Assembly: GCA_049974095.1 (NCBI GenBank)
Contig: JBMFJD010000006.1
Span: 27,895 to 59,894, forward strand
Source: Nanopusillaceae archaeon
GTDB lineage: Archaea; Nanobdellota; Nanobdellia; Nanobdellales; Nanobdellaceae
Length of the DNA stretch: 32,000 bases
Reading direction: 5' to 3'
Each line of letters starts with the position of its first letter. Within the stretch, counting starts at the first letter, position 1. The position numbers and the translations under genes were made by a program. Below are positions 1 through 32,000 of the stretch, piece by piece. The notes beneath the pieces were generated by a model, which saw only the letters and a program-made list of their open reading frames with translations, did no database searches and was not told the DNA's origin.

Positions 1-8
1 CATTTTTA

Positions 9-221
9 ATGAGACTAGATAGAGAGATGACATTACTCAAGACAAATAGATTACCAATGCCAGAATTAACATTACTATATGATAGGATAATATCTTCTAA
101 TTTGAGCACTATATATAGACTTGTATATTCTAAAGCATATGAGGTACAATATAAAAGCCCAGTTGCTAATGAGTCAACTATAAAGGTCTTAGAAAGGATT
201 GGTGCCTTATTAGAAAAATGA
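9..221 (+). CDS. Hypothetical small protein, possibly 5'-truncated by the window edge
   Basis: 70-aa ORF. Its frame stays open back to nt 3. Its stop overlaps the next ATG (ATGA at 218-221). Confidence 0.4.
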   Translation: MRLDREMTLLKTNRLPMPELTLLYDRIISSNLSTIYRLVYSKAYEVQYKSPVANESTIKVLERIGALLEK

Positions 222-841
222 GTCCAATACCAATATCATTTAATGTAACAGATATACAAAATATAACATCATCAGTAGCTCATATTACAAGTAATATTAG
301 TTTAGGCTTTATTGTAGCAATCATGTTAATATTTACTGCCATTATATTACTTACTTTGGTTATCAAAAATATATTATCAAGTATAATACCAAAATTATCA
401 CTTTTAGTATTTATTTTAGCGTCATCATATTTGCTTGCTTTTGCATATTATGTTCCAAAATATATACCTAATACATTTACTGTTGTATCAAATAATACAG
501 TAATAGTTAATACTAATGTAACATCAGATTTGCTGTCACCATATAATTTTATACTAATAACAAAATTCTATGACAATTTATTATACTATATGGCACAGTA
601 TAATGTATCTATATCTGATTTGTTAGTACCTTATGTAATATTAATCCTATTTTATATATATTTTGCATATTCATTGTACGATAAGACAAAAAAATGGGCA
701 ATACTGATAGCAGCACTATTGTTGTTTGTAACTACTGTTGGGCTTAAAGGTTTAATATACGCTAGTATGACATATACTACTTTACTATTTCTAGATATAA
801 TTGTGGCCTTATTATCTATGATTATACTAGTACTAATATGA
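218..841 (+). CDS. Polytopic membrane protein
   Basis: 207 aa with several hydrophobic helices (LGFIVAIMLIFTAIILLTLVI, LSLLVFILASSYLLAFAYYV, WAILIAALLLFVTTVGL, LLFLDIIVALLSMIILVLI). ATGA coupling at both ends. Confidence 0.6.
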   Translation: MSPIPISFNVTDIQNITSSVAHITSNISLGFIVAIMLIFTAIILLTLVIKNILSSIIPKLSLLVFILASSYLLAFAYYVPKYIPNTFTVVSNNTVIVNTNVTSDLLSPYNFILITKFYDNLLYYMAQYNVSISDLLVPYVILILFYIYFAYSLYDKTKKWAILIAALLLFVTTVGLKGLIYASMTYTTLLFLDIIVALLSMIILVLI

Positions 842-1929
842 GTGCTATAAATTTTATAGAGGATTACAAAAAAAGAGATGGACTACTAGGATTATTAAAA
901 TCTTTTAGAGATAAGTTGGTTAATGATTTTCAGAATGAATTTACCAGGATATGGAAGTTGGCATTTCCGAATACAAGGGTAGAGGTAATACCACTAGAAG
1001 CAATAGGTAGATTTTATGGCATATTTATATCAGCATATCAAAGAGCTAGAGCAGATAGGAAAGCATTATTAGAGCAATATTTTAATGAATTTACAAATTT
1101 ATATAATAGATATAGAAGTATAATGCAAAATATTACATTTGGTCAATTATTGAGACTAATCGATACTGGAGAAAGATTAAGAGAAACAGTAAATGGTACT
1201 ACTTATATGGATTTTTTAATAAAACTACATGATTGGATTGATGAAATAGTCTATATATTTAAAACAAATGAGCAAAATATTAGGCCATATTATCAAGATA
1301 TATATAATTATTATGATAAAATGGTTAAGGTACTTGTGGATATATCAACAGACTATGTTGGAGGAGTATTTGAAGGAGCGTTCGAGTTTATATTTGGTGG
1401 ATTTATACATGTAGAGAATTTCATGTATACTGTTACAAATGATCTTCAAATTGGTACATGGGAACCTTTCGTATACTATATTGTAAAGCTAATAAAGACT
1501 TTATCTATACTTGGTGGATATGATGTAGTATTCCCAACAGACTTCTTTAGTCCAGAGGAATCTATAATGGGATATGGTGCAGTTGGAGATTGGGAATATG
1601 TTTTAACAGTATACCCAAAAGAGAGTATTGGTACAGAAGCATCCAAGATTACAGAGAATACATTATTATCTATGGCTGCACAGATAGGTATTGATGTAAA
1701 AGATGATATAGCAGAATTGAGGAAAATAGATAAAGATCTTAGAAGGATGGTAGATGAATTTCCAGCATATTTCTATATAGTTGCATTAACTGGAGGAATG
1801 TATAGAGAAAGAGTAGTATTTAGAGGATATATTCCATGGGACTTTTTGGCATATCCAATACATGAAATAGCCAATAAATTAGAAAAATATAGGTATGCGC
1901 TAAAACCAAGAAGAAGAAAAAGACGCTAA
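838..1929 (+). CDS. Hypothetical soluble protein with a polybasic C-terminal tail
   Basis: 363-aa ORF with no TM segments and no NTPase motifs that I can see. Ends in KPRRRKRR. Start overlaps the upstream stop (ATGA). Confidence 0.65.
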   Translation: MSAINFIEDYKKRDGLLGLLKSFRDKLVNDFQNEFTRIWKLAFPNTRVEVIPLEAIGRFYGIFISAYQRARADRKALLEQYFNEFTNLYNRYRSIMQNITFGQLLRLIDTGERLRETVNGTTYMDFLIKLHDWIDEIVYIFKTNEQNIRPYYQDIYNYYDKMVKVLVDISTDYVGGVFEGAFEFIFGGFIHVENFMYTVTNDLQIGTWEPFVYYIVKLIKTLSILGGYDVVFPTDFFSPEESIMGYGAVGDWEYVLTVYPKESIGTEASKITENTLLSMAAQIGIDVKDDIAELRKIDKDLRRMVDEFPAYFYIVALTGGMYRERVVFRGYIPWDFLAYPIHEIANKLEKYRYALKPRRRKRR

Positions 1930-2582
1930 CGTTTATTTAATAGATATATTGACGCTACTGCAGATAATACTCCAATTATAGCTGTTATAATAAATACTGG
2001 CACATAAATTGTTGGACCTGCAGTTATTGTGAATGGGTATAGAAATGCGGTAGTTGATAGATGACCGGTTACAAATCCTGCAGCTATTCCAAAACCTGAC
2101 AATATAGCTATTGTAACAGCTTTTTCTGATGTTATTTTACCAACTGATGCATTGATGATTGCATAAAATACTAATGCTAATGATGCTCCTATTATTATGA
2201 ATCCTAACCATGCACCAAGTGTTTCTATAAATGTACCATATTGAAAAGTTAATAATTTTATTATTTGATATATTGCTGCAGTTGGACCTTTTGCTCCCAA
2301 TACTTCTAATGTTGTACCAGTGACCGCTTTCTTTGCTAATGAATAACCAAGAGCTCCAATTAATGGGAAAAATAATAATATAGGATTGAACGGTTCTTTT
2401 TTAGATATAAACATAGCTACTTCATAGATTAAAAATATTGATAGACCAAAACCTAGTGCAAAAGCTATAAAACCGATATATAATGAAAGAGTAGGATATG
2501 TTAAAATACTGTTATAACCTATATATAATAATATAAGGCTTATTATTAATAACGTTAAATATATCTTATCAATTTTGTCCAT
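1926..2582 (-). CDS. Polytopic membrane protein
   Basis: 218 aa, about 6 hydrophobic helices rich in G/A/I/L. Its stop codon (TAG on minus, 1926-1928) shares two bases with the TAA stop of the convergent gene (1927-1929). Confidence 0.6.
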   Translation of the reverse strand: MDKIDKIYLTLLIISLILLYIGYNSILTYPTLSLYIGFIAFALGFGLSIFLIYEVAMFISKKEPFNPILLFFPLIGALGYSLAKKAVTGTTLEVLGAKGPTAAIYQIIKLLTFQYGTFIETLGAWLGFIIIGASLALVFYAIINASVGKITSEKAVTIAILSGFGIAAGFVTGHLSTTAFLYPFTITAGPTIYVPVFIITAIIGVLSAVASIYLLNKR

Positions 2583-2614
2583 TATTTATAATTGTTTTTG
2601 TATATTTAAAATAT

Positions 2615-3211
2615 ATGGATAACAAATATTTATATGGGTTGTATCTCCACTATAGGGCATTATTTAATACATATAGTGATATGTATACGGCGTATTTGTA
2701 TATTGATGTAGATGGAGATACAATTAGATCTATATCAATGTTGATACCAGGTGATGAAATAAAGCAGGAGAATGACATAGTATATACAGAAACAATACTA
2801 AAAGAGGTAATATTTTATGGTGATGAGAAAGCACTGATTGATAGAATGAATAAATATTTATATAATAAATTGGTTGGAAAAATTGTTACATATGGTTTCA
2901 ATAATTATATAACACTAGTTAATAAATCTATAACATATGGATCTAGGATGTTATATAGATTCATTACTATACCAATTATCTTTGATTTATCATATCCTGT
3001 ATCGTTATATATGTACAAGAAATATAGAGAATTTAAAGTATTTACCATAGATGAAGCAATAAGTATTATATTAAATGAAAAAAATGATGAACAAGATGCT
3101 TACAAGAAAAGCATTAAATATGTTAACTACATAAAAATGATTTATGATATATTAAAAGAAGAATTTATGGATAAAAAGTTAGCCTCATTGTTTACCAATG
3201 CACGATTGTAA
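2615..3211 (+). CDS. Hypothetical protein; weak resemblance to a degenerate RNase H-fold (DEDD/PolB-exonuclease-like) domain
   Basis: 198-aa ORF. The order YLYIDVDGD ... EKALIDRMNKYLYNKLVGKIVTYGFNNYITLVNK ... DAYKKSIKYVNYIK mimics the Exo I/II/III layout, but the canonical acidic residues are mostly absent. M23 (nt 2681) is an alternative start. Confidence 0.5.
   Translation: MDNKYLYGLYLHYRALFNTYSDMYTAYLYIDVDGDTIRSISMLIPGDEIKQENDIVYTETILKEVIFYGDEKALIDRMNKYLYNKLVGKIVTYGFNNYITLVNKSITYGSRMLYRFITIPIIFDLSYPVSLYMYKKYREFKVFTIDEAISIILNEKNDEQDAYKKSIKYVNYIKMIYDILKEEFMDKKLASLFTNARL
2619..2640 (-). promoter_or_regulatory. Copy 4 of the 22-nt promoter/operator-like motif (21/22 match)
   Basis: ATAACAAATATTTATATGgGTT differs at one base from the exact 22-mer at 25470 and 28278. 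It lies 37 nt from the minus-strand ATG at 2582 and overlaps the first codons of ORF 2615. Confidence 0.35.
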
Positions 3212-3511: not shown

Positions 3512-4102
3512 ATGGTAAAAAAAATATTAGCAGCGCTTTTATTAATCATGGCACTATCAATACCAATATTTTCCGAATATGTAGAGGCGAAACTAGTAGG
3601 AGTATATAGCATACAAGTAGGGTCAAATAAGTTAACAATTTCTAATGGTCATGTTGATCTACCATTTATGACAACAAATGGAACACTAGTAGTAGAAACA
3701 AAGCATGGAAACTTTAATATGGTATTTCATGGAGAGATGACAGTAACTCAAGAGGGAACAAATATGACAGTAGTAAAGTTTGTACATGAAAATAGAGTAA
3801 CATATATCAATATAGCTGTATACGAGAATATGACAAAGATAACAGAAAAATTCTTTGAGCACTTTGTACATACATATGGAGTAAATCTAACACAAAACAT
3901 TACAATAAGACCAGTTGATAATGATACATTTGTATTAGAAGCAAAGCAAAATGCTACTGCAATGTTGTTATGGTTTATACCAATACGTGTGGTAATAGGG
4001 GAACAAATGTATGTAAATGCAACTAATGGAAATGTAGAGAAAGTAGTATATATAAGGCCATGGTGGTGGTTCTTAGTATTTGGATATAAGACTGAACAAT
4101 GA
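3512..4102 (+). CDS. Secreted or membrane-associated glycoprotein (signal peptide)
   Basis: The N-terminus MVKKILAALLLIMALSIPIFSEYVEA is signal-peptide-like. Multiple N-x-S/T sequons (NGT, NMT x2, NLT, NIT, NDT, NAT x2). Hydrophobic C-terminus WWWFLVFGY. ATGA overlap with the next gene. Confidence 0.65.
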   Translation: MVKKILAALLLIMALSIPIFSEYVEAKLVGVYSIQVGSNKLTISNGHVDLPFMTTNGTLVVETKHGNFNMVFHGEMTVTQEGTNMTVVKFVHENRVTYINIAVYENMTKITEKFFEHFVHTYGVNLTQNITIRPVDNDTFVLEAKQNATAMLLWFIPIRVVIGEQMYVNATNGNVEKVVYIRPWWWFLVFGYKTEQ

Positions 4103-7100
4103 AAAAGGTTAGATTATTACTTGTATTTTTATTATCTCTATTTTTAGTTAAATCTATCTTTTCTCAAGAATATCCATATACTAATTATTCTATAATTACT
4201 ATAAAAAACAATGTTAACTCTAACCTTTATAATTATCCTGTCTTAATTACAATAAACGATACACAAGGTTTAATACTTAATGGATATTTAAATCCTACAT
4301 GTACTAACTTAATATTCCAACAAAATGGACGGCAATTACCTTATTTTGTTCAAACATGTGGTTATATATCTGTAAATACATCTACAGGATTCAGCAATTC
4401 TACAATATTGCTAAAAGATTATCCATCTATTCCTGCAACTCTATCTCCTATAAACGGATCTTGGTGGTATAATAATACATGGACAGGATCAGCCCTAAAT
4501 GAATATGTTTACATAACATTGGATATTAAAGGTTATGTTTATCCTGTATGGTTAGAGGTAAATACAAGTGGACCTGAATATGCAATATGGGTGAATGGTA
4601 AATATTTATACAATAGTAATCCGTGGAATTTTACATATAATTCTCAACAACTAGCAAATATGACAGATCAATTATTTGATATAACTAATTTTATAGTACA
4701 AAATGGTATAAATAATATATTAATATTCGCTACTAGTAATACTACAAATAATACATTAACATTCAGAATAATAATACCATCTGCAAATGTTACTATAACT
4801 CAAGATGGTGTATATTACTTACCTGGTACAATTTGGGTAAATGTATCATCAATACCTGCTAACAATTATACTACTCTGTATATGCTCTTTACATATCCAA
4901 ATATATCAACGATTACGAATAATTTATCTAATGTATTTATTTACGGATCATATCCTATATCAAATACACATACTAGTACATCTACAACTACAGATGCCTT
5001 TTTTACCTATCAAGGTGCATATGTATATGCTCAGTGGGTATTAAATCCTACATTATACATTGTAAATGATTATAGTACAAATACTTCATACTTTATTACA
5101 CCATATACAATAAATAATATTTCAGTATCAACATATAATGCAGGATGTACAATTAGTGGAGTAAATATATTTTACTATTTGACAACATATATGCCAAGTA
5201 GTATGAGTCTTAGACAATTTGTTACTGTCAGTCAAAATGCTTCTTACTATATACCTTCATATTCTACTGTTAGAATAGGTTTACAAACTCCAATATTCTG
5301 GTTAGATGGATATATATTGAACATAATATTTAATAGAGCGCCAGGAGGATGTGGAAGGATATACGTTATAAGTGGAATGAATGCTTTAGAATTATATGGT
5401 TTTTCTTCTTTAGGAAATTACCCACTATATGGTATACCTGTAAGTTCTGCAAATTATTTACCATCTTCTACAATTACTGGTTATTTTAGAAAATATGTTT
5501 ATCCACCACCTTCAGTATCTATAAATACTGTACTTAATGTAAGTTATCCAATATCTATAAGTATACAATATCCACAGCAAAATTCTACAGTTGTAGTAAT
5601 GCCAGATAATCCAGTAATACAACCAGTAGTTACAATAAATTCTATTGTTCCAATAACTATCTGTAATATGACTCTATATGGTGGTACAAATGTAATCTAT
5701 GATGGTGTATGTACAAATTCAATAAATGTTACTGGGGCATCTCCAGGATACTATACATTACTAGTATCAGCATCAAACCAATATAATTCAACAAATGCTA
5801 GTGTAACATTTTATTTAACATTTGCAAATGGAACATACGGATTCTTTTATGTTTCTTATCCACCTAATGTTCCATCTACACCATTTTATGTAAATGTATC
5901 AACAACATGTACTGGTAATATATGTGCTGCTGGTAAGATACAATTAACAGTTCCACCAGTATGTTATACTCCTATATCAACTGTTGATATAACACAATTA
6001 TTGCCTGGACAAGTATTTAGTACATCATTCATTGTTCAATGTGCATATTCATCCAGTCCTTACAATTTTAATGTTAACGTATATCAATCTGGTAATTTAG
6101 TATACACAAATAATTTCACCTTAGATGGACCAAGATTATCTTTATCATATACTACAACTAATGATACATTATATGTATATGCATATCCATCTGGATGGGG
6201 ACAAAATATAACATTACTAGTTACTGTGAAGCAAGGATGGGTTATAAACAGTACAACTACTCAAAGTCAATTCTATGTAAATGTTTCAGACAATACCCAA
6301 TCATTAATATACACTAGTCCTGTATTGCCAGGACAAACATACACAGTATATGCTAATGTATATTATCCTCAACTATTTGCGACATATCCAGTACAGAGCA
6401 TATTTGTAACAATACAAGCAACTCAACCACCTACTATATATTCAGTTACTTCTCCATCTACTAATTATAATGGATTACCTACGGACATTTGTTATAATGT
6501 TTCAGATCAAGTTGCAGTAACAAGTGTATCTGGATATTATATAAATGGTTTGGGACAGGTAGTATATTTATTTAATAGTACATACTTTAATCAAACTGTA
6601 TATGCATGTACTCCAGTTAATTTAACCCTGGGTAATTATTCTATATATGTGAAAGCATGTGATTATTCTGGTTTATGTTCTATATTTCCACCAGTATCTG
6701 TAAGTATTATTCCATATCCTCAATACAATATTATAATATATCCATCTAATGTATCCGTATTCCATTCATCTCCACAAGTAATAAGTATATATTATTCCCA
6801 TCCATTAGAACAATATACATCATGCACTATAACATCAAATGATGAAATGTTCAATATGAAAGTTACATTATATAATAATACAAATAATACTATTACATTT
6901 TCATTATCTCCAGGAGAATATAACATGTTTATTATATGTAGTTCAAATTATACTGCAATAGCTAAACCAATTGTTATAATATATGATACCATGCCACCAA
7001 TCATAGAAGGATTTAATGTTACAAATAATATTTTATACTTGTATTTATATGATAATATTGGATTAGCATATGCACAATATAATGTTACAGTTGGTAATAC

Positions 7101-7911
7101 TACAAATACATATAATGTTTTGTTATCTGGTACATCATATATATTACAAATACCCTTAGCACTATCATCGATAACAATAGAAGGGTACGTATATGATATA
7201 TCTGGATTATCTGTGCCATTTGTATATTCATATAGCTTAGCTCAGCCGATATCGCCTCAAACTCAAGATGTTACCAAACCAAGCACACAAACAAATATTA
7301 CAAGTACACAAACAAACATTACAAATGTTACTAACTTTACAAATATAACTGTATATCAATCATATCAATCTAATTATATTGCATTATTAATACCAACAAT
7401 AAATGCTACAGTAATACATAAAGGCCTACAAATAACAGCATCAGTTACAGCTAGATATTATCCTGTAAATTGTACAATATATCCATTTAATACAACTATG
7501 TTAATACAAACATCTGCGCCATATACTACAATAATTACACAGAATATAGTCCCCGGTACATATGTTGTATATGCAATCTGTACGGATAGTGTTGGAGATA
7601 TTGCTACATCAAATATGGTTGTATTGAATATTACATCTCAAGATATCTACATGTTTGGAGCATCCGCATTTGTCGGAACGCAAAATGGAATATACAGTAT
7701 ACTGCTATTAGGAGGTGTAGTTGCATTACTTGGATACTTAATGAGATCTAGAGTACTTATTCTAATTGGTGCTGGATTGGCAGCATCGCTTGCACCATTG
7801 TATACTGGTATAATATTAGGACAACCAGTATTTGCTGCAGTAGAGGTTGTAGTTATACTTGCAGGCTTATATGTACTAAATAGATATTTATTATATAATG
7901 CTTTCGAATAA
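4099..7911 (+). CDS. Giant secreted, sequon-rich multi-domain protein: DUF2341-like module split by a galactose-binding-like jelly roll, tandem Ig-like domains, C-terminal TM helices
   Basis: 1270-aa uninterrupted ORF with signal peptide MKKVRLLLVFLLSLFLVKSIFS. I count 16 N-x-S/T sequons in the first 280 residues. Repeated modules of about 90 aa end in patterns such as SPGYYTLLVSASN, LGNYSIYVKACD, SPGEYNMFIICSS and VPGTYVVYAICTD. Three hydrophobic helices at the C-terminus. Confidence 0.85.
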   Translation: MKKVRLLLVFLLSLFLVKSIFSQEYPYTNYSIITIKNNVNSNLYNYPVLITINDTQGLILNGYLNPTCTNLIFQQNGRQLPYFVQTCGYISVNTSTGFSNSTILLKDYPSIPATLSPINGSWWYNNTWTGSALNEYVYITLDIKGYVYPVWLEVNTSGPEYAIWVNGKYLYNSNPWNFTYNSQQLANMTDQLFDITNFIVQNGINNILIFATSNTTNNTLTFRIIIPSANVTITQDGVYYLPGTIWVNVSSIPANNYTTLYMLFTYPNISTITNNLSNVFIYGSYPISNTHTSTSTTTDAFFTYQGAYVYAQWVLNPTLYIVNDYSTNTSYFITPYTINNISVSTYNAGCTISGVNIFYYLTTYMPSSMSLRQFVTVSQNASYYIPSYSTVRIGLQTPIFWLDGYILNIIFNRAPGGCGRIYVISGMNALELYGFSSLGNYPLYGIPVSSANYLPSSTITGYFRKYVYPPPSVSINTVLNVSYPISISIQYPQQNSTVVVMPDNPVIQPVVTINSIVPITICNMTLYGGTNVIYDGVCTNSINVTGASPGYYTLLVSASNQYNSTNASVTFYLTFANGTYGFFYVSYPPNVPSTPFYVNVSTTCTGNICAAGKIQLTVPPVCYTPISTVDITQLLPGQVFSTSFIVQCAYSSSPYNFNVNVYQSGNLVYTNNFTLDGPRLSLSYTTTNDTLYVYAYPSGWGQNITLLVTVKQGWVINSTTTQSQFYVNVSDNTQSLIYTSPVLPGQTYTVYANVYYPQLFATYPVQSIFVTIQATQPPTIYSVTSPSTNYNGLPTDICYNVSDQVAVTSVSGYYINGLGQVVYLFNSTYFNQTVYACTPVNLTLGNYSIYVKACDYSGLCSIFPPVSVSIIPYPQYNIIIYPSNVSVFHSSPQVISIYYSHPLEQYTSCTITSNDEMFNMKVTLYNNTNNTITFSLSPGEYNMFIICSSNYTAIAKPIVIIYDTMPPIIEGFNVTNNILYLYLYDNIGLAYAQYNVTVGNTTNTYNVLLSGTSYILQIPLALSSITIEGYVYDISGLSVPFVYSYSLAQPISPQTQDVTKPSTQTNITSTQTNITNVTNFTNITVYQSYQSNYIALLIPTINATVIHKGLQITASVTARYYPVNCTIYPFNTTMLIQTSAPYTTIITQNIVPGTYVVYAICTDSVGDIATSNMVVLNITSQDIYMFGASAFVGTQNGIYSILLLGGVVALLGYLMRSRVLILIGAGLAASLAPLYTGIILGQPVFAAVEVVVILAGLYVLNRYLLYNAFE
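7285..7326 (+). repeat. Tandem 21-nt repeat x2 inside the CDS, encoding sequon repeats TQTNIT(S/N)
   Basis: ACACAAACAAATATTACAAGT / ACACAAACAAACATTACAAAT, read directly. It lies in a linker KPSTQTNITSTQTNITNVTNFTNIT. Confidence 0.8.
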
Positions 7912-8152
7912 AAAAGATAAAAAAATAGAAGAAGCCGCAAAGCTAATTGCCAGAAAATATAGGTACTCTATGTTAGCAGAATATATATATAGAAACAGGT
8001 TGAAGAATATAGCTAGATTTTTAGGAGTATCTCCTGAGGAAATTGAGAAATCAGAAGCCATCCAGAATTTCTATAAAATGATAAAAGAGAGAAGGTTTGA
8101 AATGGCCAAAAAATATCTTGACTGGTTAATAAAAAATTATGGAAAGAAATAG
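7898..8152 (+). CDS. Small basic helical protein, member of the FLG-motif paralog family (4 copies in the window)
   Basis: 84 aa. IARFLGVSPEEIEKSEAIQNFYKMI aligns with VAKFLGTTPDKVANSRAVRNYILFT of ORF 25833. Overlaps both neighbours by 14 nt. Confidence 0.6.
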   Translation: MLSNKKDKKIEEAAKLIARKYRYSMLAEYIYRNRLKNIARFLGVSPEEIEKSEAIQNFYKMIKERRFEMAKKYLDWLIKNYGKK

Positions 8153-8867
8153 AGTAATAGGATTAAGTATAGATTTAGCAGTATTCATAATATCTGTAGT
8201 AGTATTAGCTTATGCTTGGTATCTTCTATCAGTATTAATATTACAGGGAGCATTGCTACAGTCAATAGTTCAATTACAGGAGCAACAACAAATATACCTA
8301 TATTACATAACATTAGCTCTTACTGCTATGCTATATTATGTAACATCAGCATTGCTCGGTAAGCCATATTCACCAACATATCGTACACTGTTTGATAAAA
8401 AGCAATTGTTATGGGCTATTATATTTATACTAATATATATACCTGGTTATATAGCTGGATTGATAAGAATGGGTATACCACCAATATTAACTGTAGTATA
8501 TGCAATACCATTTGCGATTGTATTAGGTGTAATGGGTTTAGTAGAAAACAGATTCTTTATAGGAACATTAGGGTTCGGTATTAAATATGAGCTAGAGAAA
8601 AGAGATATTAGATTATCACCAATATTAGCTGCAATTTTGGTAGGATTAATTGCAACACTATGGCATTTATATATGTTTGTTAGTTTATTAGTAAATGCAG
8701 CATCTTTATTTGTAATAATACAAGTAGCAATCTCAGTATTTATATTTTTCTTCTTTGGTGCTATAATTAGCTTTGACAATGATAATACATGGACATGGGA
8801 TATAGTGCACTTTATGGTTAATTTTGCAGCAGGCTTATTAGGAGCAAAAGGATTTATAATAATATGA
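8139..8867 (+). CDS. Polytopic membrane protein, possibly a CPBP (CAAX protease/Abi)-type intramembrane protease
   Basis: 242 aa with about 7 TM helices. Motif order LVENRFFIG ... LIATLWHLYMF ... IVHFMVNFAAG resembles the CPBP motifs EExxxR / FxxxH / HxxxN. Only the third motif is a clean match. Confidence 0.6.
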   Translation: MERNRVIGLSIDLAVFIISVVVLAYAWYLLSVLILQGALLQSIVQLQEQQQIYLYYITLALTAMLYYVTSALLGKPYSPTYRTLFDKKQLLWAIIFILIYIPGYIAGLIRMGIPPILTVVYAIPFAIVLGVMGLVENRFFIGTLGFGIKYELEKRDIRLSPILAAILVGLIATLWHLYMFVSLLVNAASLFVIIQVAISVFIFFFFGAIISFDNDNTWTWDIVHFMVNFAAGLLGAKGFIII

Positions 8868-10285
8868 GTGACAAATTAAACATATTTTTGATAGTATTGA
8901 TATTATCCGGTTTTATAATACCAATATTAGTATATGATATATATGTAGCACATTCAAATATAGTATCATGTAAATTTGAATCTAATACTGTAAATGTTGG
9001 AAGTTCAATAAATTATCTATGTTATGGTGTTTATAATTTAACCCAAGGGGACAATCTATTTATAATTCCATTACCTGGTACAGGCAATATAATTAGTTCA
9101 TATATTTCATTTATTAATGTACAGACTCCAATAGTATATGTTAACCTTAATGGTACTGTACCTCCAAACTCGCAAAATGTTCTTCAGTTGTATATACCAT
9201 CAAATGCATATAATATAAATATATATGGAGTATTACAAGGGATATCGTCAAACAATCAGTATCCTTTTAATTCATCAATAACTGGAGGAAATTTTCCATT
9301 ATACTGTAGTCCTTCTTGTATATACAATCAGGGCCTAATAATAAACCAATCTGGTTCATATCAACTTATAGTAAATTCTGGTTATGGAGGTGGAGGTGTA
9401 AACTATAAAATATATGGATCATATAATTTGCCAAATCCAATATATAGAATATTTGTTGGTGGATTAGAAATATTTTCAGGTCAAATATCAGATACCAGAA
9501 CAATACCAATACCGATTAATAAATCATCTACAGTTAGTATAAATGTTGACGGATATCCAAATGCTCAAGTGCTATTCTATATAGAACAGAAATGTTCATT
9601 AACTGGTGGATTTTGGAATTGTTCAGCATCTGTAGATCCATTAAATTCATCTAGATCCTTAATAGTATGTACAACTAATGTACAATCAACCTGTTCATTA
9701 TCAAATATTAATATTGAGATACCATTTAATGTAGAGTACTCTAAATACCTAAGAGATGCTGAAAATATAGAAATTTCGGTTAATGGGGTTAGGGTAAACG
9801 CTGATACTAGAGGATTATACAATCTAGTGCCATACTTTGTAATTTATAATATAAATCAGGGTGATAACTTAGTACAAATATCTTATAGAGTACCTTATAT
9901 AATACCAAAAGCACAAGTGCAAACTGGTGTATGTTTAATTTATCCTCCAAGTATTACTGTATATAAATTATCTACTCAATTACCAGTAAATACTACAATA
10001 AGTATAAAAAATACAGGTAATGTACCAATACAAGTTTCTATATATCCATCATCAATAAAAGCAAATGTATACCCATCTGATACAGTGATACAACCAGGAA
10101 GTACGGTAGATATATTGGTTAGTATTGAGGAAGGTAATAACGGATATATAATAATTGAAGGTTGTTCAGCAACACCTTACAAGTTGCCAGTTTCGGTTGA
10201 GTATATGTCATCAATAGTATCACCATTGATAATGATAATTGGTTTATTGGTATTAATAGGATTAATAGTTGTAAGAAAGGTATGA
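8864..10285 (+). CDS. Secreted sequon-rich beta-sandwich protein with a C-terminal TM anchor
   Basis: 473 aa with an N-terminal hydrophobic anchor/signal (IFLIVLILSGFIIPILVY). The motif YN(L/I)(T/N)QGDNL occurs twice. The C-terminal module TISIKNTGNVPIQVSIYPS...QPGSTVDILVSIEEGNNGYIIIEG is CARDB/NEW3-like. Ends in the TM segment PLIMIIGLLVLIGLIVV plus RKV. Confidence 0.8.
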   Translation: MSDKLNIFLIVLILSGFIIPILVYDIYVAHSNIVSCKFESNTVNVGSSINYLCYGVYNLTQGDNLFIIPLPGTGNIISSYISFINVQTPIVYVNLNGTVPPNSQNVLQLYIPSNAYNINIYGVLQGISSNNQYPFNSSITGGNFPLYCSPSCIYNQGLIINQSGSYQLIVNSGYGGGGVNYKIYGSYNLPNPIYRIFVGGLEIFSGQISDTRTIPIPINKSSTVSINVDGYPNAQVLFYIEQKCSLTGGFWNCSASVDPLNSSRSLIVCTTNVQSTCSLSNINIEIPFNVEYSKYLRDAENIEISVNGVRVNADTRGLYNLVPYFVIYNINQGDNLVQISYRVPYIIPKAQVQTGVCLIYPPSITVYKLSTQLPVNTTISIKNTGNVPIQVSIYPSSIKANVYPSDTVIQPGSTVDILVSIEEGNNGYIIIEGCSATPYKLPVSVEYMSSIVSPLIMIIGLLVLIGLIVVRKV

Positions 10286-20652: not shown

Positions 20653-20943
20653 ATGGGTAAACACATGTCAATACGTGCATATGTACTACTGGCATTAGTA
20701 TTGTTACTAACGATATCAGTGATTATGGTACTGGTCTTTTCATTATATAATAAACCTAATAGCACAAAGAATGTATCAACGATACAATTCGGGCAAAATA
20801 CACTGTACATATATAATATAAATGGAAATATATATGTATGTACACAAAATATATCGGGCGAGACATGTTTGGTGGCTCATAACTCATTAATATGTCCGGA
20901 AACTACATGCCTGCAAATATATAATATAGTAAATATATCATGA
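20653..20943 (+). CDS. Small secreted or anchored Cys-containing protein
   Basis: 96 aa. N-terminal TM segment AYVLLALVLLLTISVIMVLVFSL, sequons, 4 Cys. ATGA overlap with the next gene. Confidence 0.5.
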   Translation: MGKHMSIRAYVLLALVLLLTISVIMVLVFSLYNKPNSTKNVSTIQFGQNTLYIYNINGNIYVCTQNISGETCLVAHNSLICPETTCLQIYNIVNIS

Positions 20944-21461
20944 AGTCAACATTCAAATACGCTAAGATGGTAATAGACATATTACAAGTAATATACAATA
21001 ACCCTGGCATATCTATCTCAGAGTTAAGAAAAATTTTTAATTTACCATCATCTACAATGTCTATAATTATAAAAGAATTGAAAGATTCTGGTATAGTATT
21101 TACCTTAGAAGATAAGAAGAAAATTATTGTAAATAGAAGAAATGGTGATAGTTATGAAAGAGTAGTAAAAATAAAGAAGGTATTTCCTTTAGGTGTATCA
21201 TGTAACTCATTTGGTACTGTAATAATACCACATATAGTTAATTCAAATTCAAATTCTGGCTCGTATAATATTGGTTTAAAAGTTTTTAGTTGTCCGTTTG
21301 TTAAAGAATGTCCTTATGTAAATCAAAAAACATTAATACCAGGATATTGTAAATTATATGATCATCTATCCGATGAAGAGAAGAAAGCAATAATCAGTAT
21401 AATGGATAAAATCAATAGTCTGATAGAACTGGCTAAATATAGTACATCTCAAAAAAATTGA
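20940..21461 (+). CDS. wHTH transcription regulator with a C-terminal Cys cluster
   Basis: 173 aa. ILQVIYNNPGISISELRKIFNLPSSTMSIIIKELKDSGIVFTLED is an ArsR/MarR-like wHTH. Downstream lies CNSF...SCPFVKECPYVNQKTLIPGYC. Confidence 0.6.
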   Translation: MKSTFKYAKMVIDILQVIYNNPGISISELRKIFNLPSSTMSIIIKELKDSGIVFTLEDKKKIIVNRRNGDSYERVVKIKKVFPLGVSCNSFGTVIIPHIVNSNSNSGSYNIGLKVFSCPFVKECPYVNQKTLIPGYCKLYDHLSDEEKKAIISIMDKINSLIELAKYSTSQKN

Positions 21462-24771: not shown

Positions 24772-25458
24772 TTAGTATTCTTCAGATAAATCTATATTTT
24801 TTGTGGATACTTCTTTAGATTTGTAAGTTATTATGGGTATATCAAGATCTTCAAATTTTTTTACTAAGTTATCTCTAGATACCTTATAGAATATTATTCT
24901 ATCATCATAGTATGGGTCTCTTAGCAATTTGTATCTCCTAAAATTTTCTTTTATTTTTTTAATATATTCTTCTTTTAATGGAATCACTATCGTCCAGAGC
25001 ATAATCTTATCAACATATGTAAATATTCTATCCATTACTAACTTTACATGATCTGGTGTTATATCATTATTTTTAATATATTCATAGAGTATGTCGTCTA
25101 TAATATCATTAATATTTATCTCTAAGACTCTACCGTGATAGCCTCCTATCTGTTCTTTTTCAAAAAATGATATATCTAACAATTCTGGATTGCCAGTAGA
25201 TAGATATCTATATAGAGCATATCTAAGTCTATATGGATCATCGTTAAGTATTACTCTATAGTAAATGTTTTGTAATGGTGTAAATTTCCCTTTAATCTCA
25301 AGTCTAAAACCAGTACCACTAGCACTCCTATATAGTTTTATGTTTTCTCTACCAAATTCCTTTACAGCATATAACAATGATGCTGATAGTTCTCTATAGT
25401 TATCAATGTCAATGGTAATCCTATTCATGCAGTATTCATCTATATTGTCAATTTCCAT
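24772..25458 (-). CDS. Hypothetical protein with AEP (primase-polymerase)-like motif spacing; candidate replication initiator
   Basis: Taken from M100 of the tracked ORF (MEIDNIDEY...), 228 aa. RITIDIDN (DxD), then 33 aa later SASGTGFRLEI (SGxGx[H->R]), then 21 aa later ILNDDPYRLR. The conserved 22-nt promoter motif sits 11 nt upstream of this ATG. Confidence 0.6.
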   Translation of the reverse strand: MEIDNIDEYCMNRITIDIDNYRELSASLLYAVKEFGRENIKLYRSASGTGFRLEIKGKFTPLQNIYYRVILNDDPYRLRYALYRYLSTGNPELLDISFFEKEQIGGYHGRVLEININDIIDDILYEYIKNNDITPDHVKLVMDRIFTYVDKIMLWTIVIPLKEEYIKKIKENFRRYKLLRDPYYDDRIIFYKVSRDNLVKKFEDLDIPIITYKSKEVSTKNIDLSEEY

Positions 25459-25469: not shown

Positions 25470-25491
25470 ATAACAAATATTTATATGTGTT
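25470..25491 (-). promoter_or_regulatory. Copy 1 of the exact 22-nt promoter/operator-like motif
   Basis: ATAACAAATATTTATATGTGTT (minus-strand reading AACACATATAAATATTTGTTAT). Separated by 11 nt from the minus-strand ATG at 25458. Identical to 28278-28299. Confidence 0.6.
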
Positions 25492-25594: not shown

Positions 25595-25807
25595 ATGGTA
25601 AAGACAACTGTACAAGAAGCCAAAGCAAAATACGCCCAAAATATAAAGACAGCAGGGGACAAATATGAATCAGGAATGAGAGCTTTCTTAGGCATGGACG
25701 TATCTGGATCCCTACCAGTAAGGAGATATAAAGAGGCAGTACAAGCACCTGACATTGCAGATAGATGGGAAAGAGGATTAAAAGCGGCTTTCTCAGTTAA
25801 ATACTAG
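25595..25807 (+). CDS. Small helical protein, FLG-motif paralog family
   Basis: I chose the start at MVKTTVQEAKAKY (M21 of the tracked TTG-started ORF) because the paralogs begin MVK/MVT. MRAFLGMDVSGSLPVRRYKEAVQAPDIADRWERGLKAAF aligns with ORF 26107. Confidence 0.6.
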   Translation: MVKTTVQEAKAKYAQNIKTAGDKYESGMRAFLGMDVSGSLPVRRYKEAVQAPDIADRWERGLKAAFSVKY

Positions 25808-25813
25808 TTATTA

Positions 25814-25820
25814 TTTTTTT
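25814..25820 (+). terminator. T7 tract terminator candidate
   Basis: TTTTTTT lies 7 nt after the stop at 25807. Confidence 0.3.
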
Positions 25821-25832
25821 AAGCTATATTTT

Positions 25833-26054
25833 ATGGTCAAATCTATAAAGGATGCAATACTGAATTATTATAGATCAGTAACAGATCCCAAGACACCTAA
25901 AAGATATATTGAAGGGGTTGCTAAATTTTTAGGTACAACTCCAGATAAAGTAGCTAATTCTAGAGCTGTAAGGAATTATATACTATTTACCTATAAGGCT
26001 CGTGTAGATGGACAGAGATATATAGAAAAATTAAAAGAAGCTTTTAAGGAATAG
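25833..26054 (+). CDS. Small helical protein, FLG-motif paralog family
   Basis: 73 aa. YIEGVAKFLGTTPDKVANSRAVRNY...YIEKLKEAF. Confidence 0.65.
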   Translation: MVKSIKDAILNYYRSVTDPKTPKRYIEGVAKFLGTTPDKVANSRAVRNYILFTYKARVDGQRYIEKLKEAFKE

Positions 26055-26106
26055 TTCTGATTATTTGAACAAAACACTTTTAATATTGTATTATTAAATA
26101 TTAAAT

Positions 26107-26328
26107 ATGGTAACAAAAGAAGTTGGTATAAGGAAGTATGAGGAAAAAATAAGATCACCTGAAGCATTAGAAAGCTACTGCAAGAGAATCGCAGAATTCT
26201 TAGAGTTAACTCCAGAGGTAGTTTGTCAATCATTACCTGCAAAACATTGGGAAGAAGCTGTAAAACAACCTGGTATTGGAGAAAGATGGTACGAAAGATA
26301 TAAGGCATCTTTCCTATCCAGATCTTAA
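26107..26328 (+). CDS. Small helical protein, FLG-motif paralog family
   Basis: 73 aa. YCKRIAEFLELTPEVVCQSLPAKHWEEAVKQPGIGERWYERYKASF. Confidence 0.65.
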   Translation: MVTKEVGIRKYEEKIRSPEALESYCKRIAEFLELTPEVVCQSLPAKHWEEAVKQPGIGERWYERYKASFLSRS

Positions 26329-26386: not shown

Positions 26387-27952
26387 ATGAGGAAGTATAT
26401 AAGTTTAACGTTTGTGTTATTTATCCTACCAGCAATTTATTCAGAAGTGTACTATATTAATGCTACAGCTGGATACTATGTAACTAACTTAACATCATCC
26501 CCAACGTATGTACCAGTAGATTATCCTTATACAAGTTATGGGGTAATCTCATGGGAAAATAATAACTTGTGGGTATCTGGAAATAATGCTTTCTTTGTTC
26601 AGTTAAATCTGTCTATAGATCCAAATATATACGACGTTATTATTAAATATGGTGGAATAAATATTACGGCATCTTCTTCAGGTGGTGTAGAAGGATGGGT
26701 GAATAATTTCAATGACGTATACAATTATACATTTGCATGTGGCATTACGTCATCTGGAACTGTATATGGTCAGACAGATCCATGTAGTGTTAATAATTTC
26801 AACTTATCAAGCTATTTGAGACCAGGTGATAATATGATCATAATGTATTGTAATGCTGGGTCAACTTCTACACCATACTGCAACTTTTATTTAACATTAC
26901 CAAAAGGAGTTAAAATAAATAATAACTCCAATATACCTGTATTATATGCTAATATTACTACTGTATCATACATATATAATTATACGAATAATGTGTCTAC
27001 CATATATAATACATCATTTTATAATTTATACAATTATTCATCAAGCGTATATTCAATATATAATGCATCATATATCAAAACTATTCAAAGCGATTTAATA
27101 ATAACACCAAAAGATTATAGTGTAACATCAACAAACAACTCTAAAACAACATCAATAACTGTTGATGTATCTGGATCACAACAGCTACCAATACTTTTAG
27201 TAGCATATTTAGTTACACAAGATAATAATCTAACAAATATAACAGATTATGCACCAACAATAACAGTAAATAATGTCAATTATGGAAATACACCAATAAT
27301 AACATTTATGCATCAGCCACCACTACAAACATATTCAATACAGATAACGGATTATTATCCAAGTTACAAGACACTAGTATTTTTATTTGCATGGAATCCT
27401 AATCAAACAGTAATAGTAGGAATAGCGCCTCTATTAGGTACATATACATATCAAATAGGACAGCCAAAATTGTTGTCATATACAAAATCTGTATCTTTTA
27501 TCTATGGAATACCACTATACATATTTCCAAAGAGAGATTCTAGTAATCCAGCAATACCAGTATTGATAAATATCAAACAGCTATCTGATCAATTAGGTAT
27601 GAATTTGTCATCACAAAGCTTTATAGTAATGAGATATGATCCAATAACTGGAAGCTTTTCTATGGTACCATACTTTGTTGATCCAAATATAAGATATCCA
27701 TATGCATTGATGTTTATAAAAGTACCAGAGTTCAGAGCAAACATACCAGTTATATTATACATATTTGTAACAGATGATAAATATTCTAATTTCGAACAAC
27801 CAAATCTTGTATTCAAATTCTTCGTTAATTTCCAAATACCTTCATATTACTCATTAATAAATCTATATACGACATCGGGAGTAACTTATACACAAACACC
27901 ATTAGGATTACTAGTTAACTTAAATGGTGGTACACTATCAATATATCCATAA
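26387..27952 (+). CDS. Secreted sequon-rich protein: N-terminal jelly-roll-like module + C-terminal DUF2341-like module
   Basis: Start taken at MRKYISLTFVLFILPAIYSE (signal peptide, M38 of the tracked ORF; the extension overlaps ORF 26107). GWVNNFN...FNLSSYLRPGDNMIIMYCNAG resembles a galactose-binding-like fold. The C-terminal FIVMRYDPITGSFSMVPYFVD...YALMFIKVPEFRANIPVILYIFVTDD is DUF2341-like. Confidence 0.8.
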   Translation: MRKYISLTFVLFILPAIYSEVYYINATAGYYVTNLTSSPTYVPVDYPYTSYGVISWENNNLWVSGNNAFFVQLNLSIDPNIYDVIIKYGGINITASSSGGVEGWVNNFNDVYNYTFACGITSSGTVYGQTDPCSVNNFNLSSYLRPGDNMIIMYCNAGSTSTPYCNFYLTLPKGVKINNNSNIPVLYANITTVSYIYNYTNNVSTIYNTSFYNLYNYSSSVYSIYNASYIKTIQSDLIITPKDYSVTSTNNSKTTSITVDVSGSQQLPILLVAYLVTQDNNLTNITDYAPTITVNNVNYGNTPIITFMHQPPLQTYSIQITDYYPSYKTLVFLFAWNPNQTVIVGIAPLLGTYTYQIGQPKLLSYTKSVSFIYGIPLYIFPKRDSSNPAIPVLINIKQLSDQLGMNLSSQSFIVMRYDPITGSFSMVPYFVDPNIRYPYALMFIKVPEFRANIPVILYIFVTDDKYSNFEQPNLVFKFFVNFQIPSYYSLINLYTTSGVTYTQTPLGLLVNLNGGTLSIYP

Positions 27953-28302: not shown

Positions 28303-28539
28303 TTATCTATGCATTCTACTAGTTTTCATTTTCCTAATGAATAGATTTGCTTCTGAAGGGTTATCAAATTGGGCAATTATAATCTCCCAAGATGGAGTAT
28401 CTTCTCTTATAATCTTGAAATGTTTACCACAATATGGGCATAGTTTTACCTTATTTTTGCCATTCCTAACAGAATCATATAATAGTAAATTACCACAATG
28501 TGGACATTCTAATATCCAATATCTCTTAGAATTTACCAT
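28303..28539 (-). CDS. C4 zinc-ribbon protein
   Basis: 78 aa. CPHCGNLLLYD...(13 aa)...CPYCGKHF is a classic two-knuckle zinc ribbon. The layout recalls small archaeal Zn-ribbon families (DUF1922-like, from memory). Confidence 0.65.
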   Translation of the reverse strand: MVNSKRYWILECPHCGNLLLYDSVRNGKNKVKLCPYCGKHFKIIREDTPSWEIIIAQFDNPSEANLFIRKMKTSRMHR

Positions 28540-29048: not shown

Positions 29049-29372
29049 ATGTCTAATTATAGGATAGGTTATTACTATGAGAGAAAAGTAAAGAAATATC
29101 TTGAGGATAAGGGAAATTATATAGCATGGAGAACACCAGGATCTAAGTCACCAATCGATATAATAGCTATAAACAAGGATACGGGAGAAGTTATACTTAT
29201 ACAAGTTAAAAAAACTAAATACAAAACGCAAGATGATATATATCGTAGTGAGGTAAAAGAATTAGAAAAATTTGCATCAATGTTTAAATCTGATAATATT
29301 AGGGTAGAGTTATGGGTTTTCTCAAATGAGGGCTTATCTATATATCAAATAAATAAGAATAATAAACAATAA
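29049..29372 (+). CDS. hjc: Holliday-junction resolvase Hjc-like PD-(D/E)xK nuclease homolog, with Q in place of the catalytic Glu
   Basis: GYYYERKVKKYLEDKGNYIAWRTPGSKSPIDIIAINKDTGEVILIQVKK aligns by eye with Sulfolobus Hjc GSAVERNIVSRLRDKGFAVVRAPASGSK..PIPDIIALKNGVIILIEMKS. E11, D37 and K54 are present. The ExK Glu is Q52 (CAA at 29202-29204). Confidence 0.75.
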   Translation: MSNYRIGYYYERKVKKYLEDKGNYIAWRTPGSKSPIDIIAINKDTGEVILIQVKKTKYKTQDDIYRSEVKELEKFASMFKSDNIRVELWVFSNEGLSIYQINKNNKQ

Positions 29373-29761: not shown

Positions 29762-29820
29762 ATAGATATATGAACGGCTATCTGATATATTCTTATAAAC
29801 AATAAACATATATATAACTT

Positions 29821-30204
29821 ATGGAAAAATATGTTTGTGATAAGATTATAGATAATATATCTAGAAGATATAATGTAGTAAGCAGAGATTGGTTTCCTGA
29901 CGGTATGTGTTCGGTTAAAATTGAATTACCAGATTACACAAAAGTAAAATTAAATTTTAATGTTGTTGATAATTCTTTATATGTTGATATGTTTGTACAG
30001 AGACCATTCCAAGAAAAATTAAGAATGTCATACTTTTCAAAAGATTATAACATATATATTGCAGAAGTATATACTTCAAGAGAAGGATTTAATCTATTGT
30101 ATAATTTTGTTGTTGGTGTAAAATTCGATCATGTAAAGGATAAAGATTTTATAATGCAAGGTAGATTTATAGATGAAATGTTGCGCAACTTGAACATAGA
30201 GTAA
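29821..30204 (+). CDS. Hypothetical protein, N-terminal Cys-motif family (intact copy)
   Basis: 127 aa. MEKYVCDKIIDNISRRYNVVSRDWFPDGMCSV parallels the frameshifted gene at 31022. Confidence 0.6.
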   Translation: MEKYVCDKIIDNISRRYNVVSRDWFPDGMCSVKIELPDYTKVKLNFNVVDNSLYVDMFVQRPFQEKLRMSYFSKDYNIYIAEVYTSREGFNLLYNFVVGVKFDHVKDKDFIMQGRFIDEMLRNLNIE

Positions 30205-30272
30205 TAATAGATCACAAAACAAAACCCACATACAAATAAATATTTTTAGCATTGTTATAATAATATAATATT

Positions 30273-30776
30273 ATGGAAATGAGAACATTTAAGGAAAATA
30301 TAGAATGTACAGAAAAACATCTAGAATTTATATACGAAAATCTACATGAGATATCAGAAAAGGTAAGTACTCTAGCACCAGATTTTCTAGACACAATAAA
30401 TAAACTAAGAGGATATATACTATTATACTATAGAACAATACAGGAAATAAAGATAGGATTAAACCAATTAGAATCAAACTATAATGAAGAAATATTCAAC
30501 TACATATATAATAAATTAGACAATATAAGGACAAACCTAAGAACAATAAGAAAAATATTACATAATATGAAAAATACTATTATCGATAGAGAATATGAAA
30601 AATTACTGAAAGATACAGAACCAGACAAACTAAAAGATGCAATAATAAATTATCATTACCCATTAGAAATAGCAAGCCTATTAGAAGAAATTGCAGATAA
30701 TAGGGGAAATCTGTATGCGGCTGAAAGACATCTAACCGAATTCTTAACTGTATTACAAAATAAATTTAAAAAATGA
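30273..30776 (+). CDS. All-helical hypothetical protein
   Basis: 167-aa ORF with coiled-coil-like composition. An A/T box (TAAATATTTTT) lies about 30 nt upstream. Confidence 0.6.
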   Translation: MEMRTFKENIECTEKHLEFIYENLHEISEKVSTLAPDFLDTINKLRGYILLYYRTIQEIKIGLNQLESNYNEEIFNYIYNKLDNIRTNLRTIRKILHNMKNTIIDREYEKLLKDTEPDKLKDAIINYHYPLEIASLLEEIADNRGNLYAAERHLTEFLTVLQNKFKK

Positions 30777-30937
30777 TTGATGAGTGTAGAAAATGTGAAG
30801 ACGATACAAGAATAACAGAAAGAGAAATAAAAGGATTAGATATGACTAGAGATATAAGACAACAACAGGAAGTAAATCCATTACAGAAAGATAAAAAGAA
30901 AGAATTAGAAGAATTAATGAAAACATTAGGTTTATAA
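30773..30937 (+). CDS. Small hypothetical protein (54 aa, below the ORF-track cutoff)
   Basis: My own translation: MIDECRKCEDDTRITEREIKGLDMTRDIRQQQEVNPLQKDKKKELEELMKTLGL. Its ATG overlaps the upstream TGA (ATGA at 30773-30776), suggesting coupling. Confidence 0.35.
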   Translation: MIDECRKCEDDTRITEREIKGLDMTRDIRQQQEVNPLQKDKKKELEELMKTLGL

Positions 30938-31021
30938 ATCACCTAAAATATATTCTTCATCTGTGGATAAGCAGATTTCAAAAATTATAAACATTAACAT
31001 TTTAAGTAGGGATGATAATAT

Positions 31022-31493
31022 ATGTTTATGGCTGATGAATATGTTTGTAAGAGATTAGCTGATGCAATAGAGGATCGTCTTATAGCTAAGAATGTTCAGG
31101 TAAAAGTATAAGTATTATCCAGAAACCGGAGATTGTATAGTATGGTTCTGGAGCAGAGATGAAGTTGAGCTAGCAAATAAAAGGCGCCTTGGTTTTGCAG
31201 ATGCAGAATCATTTGTAAAATATAATGTAAAGGAGGATGCAGTTACACAATTTGGATTACATAGAGTATTACGTGATGATGTAGAAGTCTTTGACATAGC
31301 TCCTGATATACCAGTATCAATACATGTGAACTTTGATAAAAGATTGGTACAGATACATGAAGAACCTGTTGTACCTCCAAGGAAGGTATCACCAGCTACT
31401 ATTATGAGATTAATATATGATGTTTATTATAATGAAGAAGAATATCAAGAATATTTAAGAGAATGGGAATTAACTGATGAAGAAGAGGAATGA
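31022..31493 (+). pseudogene. Frameshifted member of the Cys-motif family (pseudogene, sequencing error or recoding)
   Basis: Frame A (31022-31111) gives MFMADEYVCKRLADAIEDRLIAKNVQVKV and then a stop. Frame B (31104-31493) gives KYKYYPETGDCIVWFWSRDEVELANKRRLG...EWELTDEEEE. Removing one A from GTAAAAG (31100-31106) fuses the two frames. The N-terminus parallels ORF 29821. Confidence 0.5.
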
Positions 31494-31537
31494 AGATATA
31501 TATAATATTTTTTAAACGTCAAATATAGATACATGTA

Positions 31538-31594
31538 ATGGATTGTTCAAAAATCTGTAAAAGATTAATTAATGATATAAAAGATATATTATAA
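31538..31594 (+). other. 18-codon stub resembling the N-terminus of the Cys-motif family
   Basis: MDCSKICKRLINDIKDIL then a stop. Compare EYVCKRLADAIEDRL (31022) and KYVCDKIIDNISRRY (29821). Confidence 0.25.
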
Positions 31595-31670
31595 CAGTAT
31601 ATTTACTACTAGTATAATAGCAATTATACATAATATTTCTATCATAACAATACCAATTTTTATTCAATAA

Positions 31671-31777
31671 GTTCACCATACTGAACGAATATTAATATTT
31701 TTGGTTCACTACATAGAACGAATTTTTTCCTCCCATAGGAAACAACTTTACTAAAATCTTTCCTCCTGAAAGAAAAC
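31671..31777. promoter_or_regulatory. Four short dyad elements at 33-nt spacing (ORB-like); candidate replication origin core
   Basis: E1 GTTCA-CCATAC-TGAAC-GAAT (31671-31690). E2 GTTC-ACTACATA-GAAC-GAAT (31704-31723). E3 TTTCCT-CCCAT-AGGAAA-CAAC (31726-31746). E4 TCTTTC-CTCCT-GAAAGA-AAAC (31757-31777). E1 to E2 and E3 to E4 are each offset by 33 nt. E3 and E4 share TTTCCTCC. Confidence 0.45.
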
Positions 31778-31927
31778 ATATAATATCATAATGTATAATA
31801 TAAAATCGAGATTTGTAGTATAGTAGTCGATAATATTGCCAATATTCTAATCATTTTAATATACATATAATATTGGAAAAAACATATTATTAACAATATA
31901 TATTATAGTAAGTTTATAAGGGTTGTG

Positions 31928-31991
31928 CCACCACCGGGGTTTAAGTTCATTTAGCGAAAAATTTATAAATTTTTCTGTTACTACCGGGTGG
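31928..31991. repeat. GC-clamped nested inverted repeat (outer 8-bp stem with a 2-nt bulge, inner perfect 20-nt palindrome)
   Basis: CCACC(AC)CGG at 31928-31937 pairs with CCGGGTGG at 31984-31991. The inner GAAAAATTTATAAATTTTTC (31956-31975) is its own reverse complement. An A9 run follows at the window end. Confidence 0.7.
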
Positions 31992-32000
31992 AAAAAAAAA

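Follow-up and report, generated by a model that had tools for sequence, protein, structure and literature searches.

The stretch of DNA analysed here (the window; 32,000 nucleotides, bases 27,895-59,894 of contig JBMFJD010000006.1, called C6 below) is the right half of a ~60-kb element represented by C6 (59,894 bp), in a Nanopusillaceae-type assembly of 764 kb in 48 contigs. The element is a separate, mobile and mosaic replicon, which occurs in this one nanoarchaeal assembly as three diverged relatives. The explanation that we favour, with about an even chance of being correct, is a double-stranded DNA virus of Nanopusillaceae with an enveloped nucleoprotein core and no shell; it would probably be previously undescribed, unless it is related to Nanoarchaeota virus 1 (NAV1).

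The GC content of C6 is 0.28, as against 0.23-0.25 on the chromosomal contigs, which carry all 43 tRNAs of the assembly; C6 has none, and no housekeeping gene was found in its 60 kb. Only six C6 proteins have matches on chromosomal contigs. Its thermopsin, MCM and Hjc resemble chromosomal genes, and no chromosomal homologue was found for any large exported protein. Six further contigs (C9, C11, C12, C13, C16, and C17) are colinear with C6, together cover it about twice, and hold counterparts of 34 of 39 window genes at 30-87% identity; we infer that they represent two sister elements, C17-C9-C16-C12 and C13-C11, the gap between C9 and C16 being bridged by one metagenome contig. Relatives with the same gene order are also present in NCBI, JGI, and ENA metagenomes, with colinear ones in four other metagenome samples, and the order of a one-strand gene module is kept across relatives at 40-80% identity. 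A search of 20 other genomes of the order, among them single-contig genomes and complete ones of the same genus, found none of the marker genes of the element. In addition, the seven element contigs and a fragment of 575 bp together hold 27 copies of a 19-nt promoter-like motif that is absent from the main contigs of the chromosome. An ordinary chromosomal surface-protein locus with housekeeping neighbours, which an earlier note on this stretch had named as an outcome that would overturn its viral reading, is refuted by the colinear relatives, by the absence of the markers from other genomes, and by the distribution of this private motif; although the contig is part of a genome assembly and encodes many surface proteins, 60 kb without a housekeeping gene or tRNA, in three diverged copies, makes such a locus scarcely credible.

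The closest relative of C6 changes at the gene for a 1270-amino acid (aa) exported protein, from C9 on its left (61-81% identity) to C11 on its right (52-87%), and this switch suggests that C6 is a mosaic formed by recombination among elements that reside together. The 196-aa and 1270-aa open reading frames (ORFs) are joined in C9 as one frame of 1449 aa. C12 (locus L003:9048-17324) carries six alternating tandem genes, three for exported proteins of ~500 aa and three for proteins of ~340 aa, and C9 likewise has three tandem copies of the ~340-aa exported gene. The left half of C6 also bears a paralogue array within a low-GC (20-24%) block at the contig end (locus L001:1935-5415), comprising four tandem Lys/Glu-rich paralogues of ~280 aa, each preceded by a copy or near copy of the 19-nt motif; the array is mirrored in C17, and no family assignment was found for it. 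No meaningful repeat family was found on the element.

The gene layout is as compact as the earlier note had described it: its 40 genes occupy 94% of the window, with ATGA-type overlaps of 4 nt in seven co-directional gene pairs and overlaps of 4, 14, and 27 nt where genes converge. The MCM, Hjc, winged helix-turn-helix (wHTH)/MarR, and Zn-ribbon genes that it had named were matched to families, whereas its ribbon-helix-helix (RHH) gene found no support in Pfam. It had also recognised no capsid, packaging ATPase, polymerase or integrase, and this was borne out when all C6 ORFs were scanned with Pfam and PHROGs (NCBIfam scans covered ten ORFs): no capsid, terminase, A32/FtsK/HerA, PolB or integrase family was found, one of these results covering the best 25 of 63 families, with the remaining families being single-member matches at E >= 2e-4. 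“No recognisable capsid” here means that no profile matched; most ORFs were not folded, and the window is half of the element. The tailed-virus (Caudoviricetes) set of HK97 capsid, portal, and large terminase with its P-loop had no PHROG or Pfam match in C6 ORFs, and no profile matched a jelly-roll major capsid protein (MCP). The A32/FtsK-type packaging ATPase of tailless icosahedral archaeal viruses was found neither with Pfam nor in a P-loop scan of the element contigs, in which the sole P-loop of the window was that of the MCM and all others were of AAA+/MCM type. The same scan gave no partition or conjugation ATPase and no VirB4/TraG/HerA-type P-loop on any element contig, and the VirB4/TraG/HerA ATPase of conjugative plasmids and integrative conjugative elements was likewise not among the best 25 of 63 families. 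The single PF00589 tyrosine recombinase of the assembly lies on contig C2, among housekeeping genes. Three MCM ATPase genes are present on C6, one in the window and two in the left half.

Exported proteins dominate the window, the six largest accounting for 48% of residues, or 61% when smaller anchored ones are counted. The claim in the earlier note that about half of the coding capacity is spent on secreted glycoproteins thus stands for export. The density of N-glycosylation sequons is 3-4 per 100 aa in four exported proteins, four- to fivefold the 0.8 of chromosomal ORFs, but just 1.1-1.8 in the 367-, 908-, 473-, and 722-aa proteins. From their sequons, the exported proteins would be glycosylated. 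The 367-aa protein is a candidate major envelope or surface protein, and the 146-aa multi-transmembrane (TM) protein a candidate matrix or membrane protein. The 722-aa protein has repeats that look propeller-like by eye and a C-terminal DUF2341-like motif, and the 954-aa protein is Cys-rich and tail-anchored. In the ORF at 8139, the residues E136, H176, H224, and N228 are invariant in five relatives and follow the E, H, and HxxxN catalytic order of CPBP/Rce1 proteases; no Pfam, NCBIfam or PDB match was found for this ORF. A class II fusogen (fusexin) was considered for the 473-aa protein and is unsupported, as the AlphaFold model has a pLDDT of 60 and only its C-terminal immunoglobulin (Ig) domain was matched (ASH/PapD). 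The comparison of this low-confidence model with BFVD and Atlas returned nothing specific.

The host is likely to be a nanoarchaeon. The element Hjc shares 55% identity with its counterpart on the chromosome of the assembly, 17 of 18 genome matches to it fall in Nanobdellales (Nanopusillus, Nanobdella, Nanoclepta, and kin) with none crenarchaeal, and the three element copies form one branch of the Hjc tree. Codon usage of the element and the chromosome correlates at r = 0.96, and six of the seven element contigs have a third-position GC content (GC3) of 0.13-0.18 and a relative synonymous codon usage (RSCU) r of 0.94-0.97. We go no further than “likely” because the Hjc search was seeded partly with the Hjc of the host itself, which biases it towards Nanobdellales, and because the tree has no outgroup from outside that order, so that an Hjc donor could not be read from it. 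Mis-binning by composition of a virus or plasmid from some other low-GC archaeon of hot springs, such as the crenarchaeal host, would account for element contigs that are unlinked to the chromosome by assembly, spacer or attachment (att) site and are 4-5 points higher in GC; given the nanoarchaeal Hjc matches, even from host-seeded patterns, and the shared codon usage, we consider it very unlikely. Two extra divergent Hjc copies (loci L049 and L051) lie on small contigs of a Nanopusillus metagenome-assembled genome (MAG), with neighbours unlike those of the element, and possibly belong to another mobile element. An ORF that may take part in replication, at 24772, resembles by motif an archaeo-eukaryotic primase (AEP), a group marked by DxD, SxxGxH, and a third Asp: its DxD and DD are invariant, the position of the AEP His is Arg in six of six sequences, and no Pfam, PHROG or PDB match was found.

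The most suggestive of the small proteins are four paralogues of 70-84 aa, here called FLG, which align on an A-x-F-L-G core and are present in both sister elements. A profile search gathered 68 clusters of this family at 50% identity, found on diverse mobile elements of archaea; a further 300 genomes of the phylum yielded none. Five of the six contexts examined are virus-like or resemble mobile genetic elements, the neighbours including a Zot-related ATPase with MoxR/vWA, an AAA protein with glycosyltransferases, integrases, and PolB with primase. In two unrelated contigs, the FLG gene is convergent with a tyrosine integrase (L069:10001-10297, L068:2224-2511), and the former, from an Archaeoglobaceae MAG, also encodes PolB, primase, and clamp loader. 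The AlphaFold model shows five helices (pLDDT 96), and the family has median values of 21% for Arg + Lys + Asn (RKN) content and +5 for net charge. Archaeal nucleoprotein MCPs are reported to be proteins of 78-204 aa with five helices and ~20% RKN, mutually unrelated in sequence (PMC12273771). No real match to the FLG fold was found in PDB, BFVD, and Atlas (best Z 5.1), the SIRV2-fold MCP of Adnaviria was not among the structural matches, and PHROGs and PDB sequence profiles gave no match. One of three peptides of VP4 from Sulfolobus ellipsoid virus 1 (SEV1) fits the FLG core (shuffle p 0.002; peptide picked by eye), and VP4 was not retrieved by the word-limited profile search. The likeness to archaeal nucleocapsid proteins lies in general features, and the tie to SEV1 VP4 is weak. 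Should the element be a virus, FLG would be its nucleocapsid with roughly equal chances for and against.

On the observed gene inventory, mobility, and conservation, a particle model can be built that is conditional at every step. The MCMs, possibly with the AEP-like ORF, would recruit the host replisome, and the four FLG proteins would coat the DNA into a filament, as the small five-helix proteins of SEV1 and SPV1 do, so that a packaging motor would not be needed. Small multi-TM proteins would form the matrix, and the large Ig, DUF2341, and propeller-like proteins would stud a host-derived envelope as receptor-binding spikes. The CPBP-like candidate protease may mature or release the exported proteins, whereas duplication and recombination of their genes may vary the receptor range. 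It is tempting, if on balance doubtful, to go further and propose a new viral family whose large, enveloped members infect nanoarchaeal ectosymbionts, with a hitherto unrecognised five-helix nucleocapsid whose family marks many unclassified archaeal viruses in metagenomes from hot springs and elsewhere, and with an envelope matured by a CPBP protease.

A number of observations weigh against a virus. No virion protein is demonstrated among the element genes; of the undescribed virus lineage claimed in the earlier note, what stands is a mobile, nanoarchaea-associated element with no high-identity match to a described virus in the collections searched. The FLG core can equally be read as an ordinary helix-turn-helix, and FLG proteins may be regulators or chromatin proteins; one paralogue carries a net charge of just +1, the length of three falls below the range reported for MCPs, and the other two SEV1 VP4 peptides fall out of order on FLG, the fitting one having been chosen by eye. 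A lone FLG homologue is present in the chromosome of Metallosphaera cuprina (L058:10001-10309), with ~1 kb upstream that has no called genes, and is perhaps a remnant or a domesticated copy. The codon usage of AT-rich genomes correlates in any case. At the contig ends, where the earlier note had suggested looking for circularity or attachment sites, neither a terminal repeat nor a circular join was found, and no tRNA matched as an att site; a 20-nt palindrome that the contig end has in common with C1 was rejected as an att site, being an AT-rich promoter-like word. The spacer comparison that it had also suggested could draw on three local spacers, none of which matched beyond chance in the sequences compared; they come from a four-repeat CRISPR-like array beside a Csx1-like ORF on the 2.8-kb contig C21 (2525-2780).

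The half-genome of adhesin-like proteins fits a plasmid of an ectosymbiont equally well. A large non-viral plasmid of the nanoarchaeon, carrying variable adhesins for the crenarchaeal host or spreading by self-encoded vesicles (pR1SE-type), is the main alternative, possible though less than probable, under which FLG proteins would be chromatin or regulatory proteins. It would account for the lack of a capsid or packaging family in the searches above, for three relatives together in one assembly, for exported proteins with cell-surface folds (ASH/PapD Ig, DUF2341), for the similarity of thermopsin, MCM, and Hjc to chromosomal genes, and for the multiplication of surface genes by duplication in C9 and C12. 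It sits poorly, however, with the failure to find a partition or conjugation ATPase, with the tight module order kept among relatives, with large exported proteins that have no chromosomal homologue, and with FLG homologues that lie mostly on virus-like contigs.

Features of the window and of the adjoining part of C6 (positions in the window; a dot marks a feature without strand)
Feature	Position	Strand	Remark
Right half of the mobile element, contig C6	1..32000	.	
Left part of C6, outside the window	27.9 kb		MoxR-type AAA + DUF2201 vWA, small AAA+, thermopsin, full MCM, MCM core, RAMP-like ORF
End of conserved cytoplasmic/membrane gene block (5-TM protein of 207 aa, soluble protein of 363 aa, convergent membrane protein of 218 aa)	218..2582	.	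no family
Putative RHH-type regulator, 78 aa	3185..3421	-	by eye; Pfam support absent
N-anchored, sequon-rich protein, 196 aa, PWW motif at end	3512..4102	+	74-79% identical in sister elements
Exported protein, 1270 aa, 53 sequons, weak DUF2341 module, C-terminal TM pair	4099..7911	+	
Basic FLG paralogue (five-helix family), 84 aa	7898..8152	+	
Polytopic membrane protein, 242 aa, candidate intramembrane protease	8139..8867	+	
N- and C-anchored beta protein, 473 aa, ASH/PapD-like Ig domain at end	8864..10285	+	Z 12, residues 355-447
N-anchored beta-rich protein, 367 aa	10784..11887	+	kept in all relatives (53-64%)
Exported proteins, 722 aa and 954 aa	12583..17608	+	
Hydrophobic multi-TM protein without sequons, 146 aa	17669..18109	+	
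Mini-MCM AAA+ ATPase, 385 aa	19458..20615	-	Pfam MCM, E 4e-18
wHTH/MarR-like regulator with Cys motifs	20940..21461	+	
Exported, tail-anchored Ig-repeat protein, 908 aa	22044..24770	+	
Protein of 228 aa, invariant DxD, GTGFR, and DDP motifs	24772..25458	-	AEP-primase-like by motif alone
Promoter-like 19-nt element-specific motif	25473..25491	+	other copies near 2622, 3440, 28281
Three tandem FLG paralogues (70, 73, 73 aa)	25595..26328	+	starts 25595, 25833, 26107
Exported sequon-rich protein, 521 aa, DUF2341-like motifs	26387..27952	+	three tandem copies in C12
Zn-ribbon protein	28303..28539	-	
Holliday-junction resolvase Hjc	29049..29372	+	
Non-coding tail up to contig end	31494..32000	.	

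Beyond the element and its sisters, WG-like repeat proteins are encoded on the tiny contigs C26, C35, C48, and C39 together with a second mini-AEP-like ORF, which suggests that the bin contains other unrelated mobile DNA.

DPANN archaea have few known viruses, and for hot-spring nanoarchaea one reported uncultivated virus was found. An element a tenth of the size of the host chromosome, with three recombining relatives and many adhesin-like proteins, bears on gene exchange of symbionts and perhaps on change of host. The FLG family, whose survey and predicted fold are new here, offers a small and easily expressed nucleocapsid candidate and a marker for related capsid-less elements.

That one virus, NAV1, is likewise uncultivated and consists mostly of ORFs without known function. 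The element could be a relative of it, in which case the lineage would be known though uncharacterised; the host group and the habitat type are the same, and NAV1 (Munson-McGee, Rooney and Young 2020, PMID 31666377) is the sole nanoarchaeal virus cited in the literature consulted. However, NAV1 has a circular genome of ~35.6 kb, much below 60 kb. In searches of IMG/VR or a phage collection, from which near-identical records and NAV1 itself may be missing, four window proteins matched nothing except generic MCMs; tblastn of the 367-aa protein and FLG homologues against the phage collection, and pattern scans of IMG/VR, gave no match. A described virus matching at high identity, the other outcome that the earlier note had set against itself, was thus not encountered in these collections, and kinship with NAV1 seems unlikely.

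Some features of Bicaudaviridae (ATV, STSV, SMV), which have genomes of 50-75 kb, a MoxR AAA + vWA pair, and a small AAA+ ATPase, recur in the element: the left half of C6 encodes the pair, seen as AAA_5, DUF2201, and VWA, and such pairs are widespread on unrelated elements. By contrast, the bicaudaviral tyrosine integrase has no counterpart, the only PF00589 match being chromosomal, and the spindle-type hairpin capsid protein had no PHROG match, the 146-aa hydrophobic ORF not having been folded. The plasmid-vesicle elements of the pR1SE type in haloarchaea are ~50 kb, have no capsid, and encode many membrane-associated and propeller-like proteins. The element is likened to them by description, not by sequence; it differs in host, and no small GTPase-type P-loop was seen in it.

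Pleolipoviridae and the nanohaloarchaeal pleomorphic viruses (10.1101/2025.02.15.638363), for which DPANN hosts are known, resemble the particle proposed for the element in having no shell and in combining a small membrane protein with a tail-anchored spike. Their genomes, however, are ~9 kb with a VP3/VP4/ATPase module, whereas the element encodes at least six large exported proteins; the VP3 matrix, VP4 fusogen, and ATPase had no PHROG match, with the 473-aa model of low confidence and the other large proteins not folded. Globuloviridae (Pyrobaculum spherical virus, PSV) have an enveloped nucleoprotein virion and many membrane proteins, as proposed for the element, and neither element proteins nor the FLG profile matched the PSV six-frame translation (phmmer, hmmsearch). 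A further proposed likeness is to SEV1 (Ovaliviridae) and SPV1 (Portogloboviridae), in which a small five-helix RKN-rich protein coats the DNA inside a lipid envelope (PMC12273771). SEV1 VP4 has 107 aa, as against four FLG paralogues of 70-84 aa whose homology to it is not established, and the SPV1 genome is 20 kb (PMC8459092), as against ~60 kb. Unlike these viruses, the element encodes MCMs as well as exported proteins of very large size, and no jelly-roll shell was seen with profiles, most ORFs not being folded. If the element is viral, it would work like the known enveloped nucleoprotein viruses of archaea while having no demonstrable structural gene in common with those tested, and its novelty would probably be at the family level.

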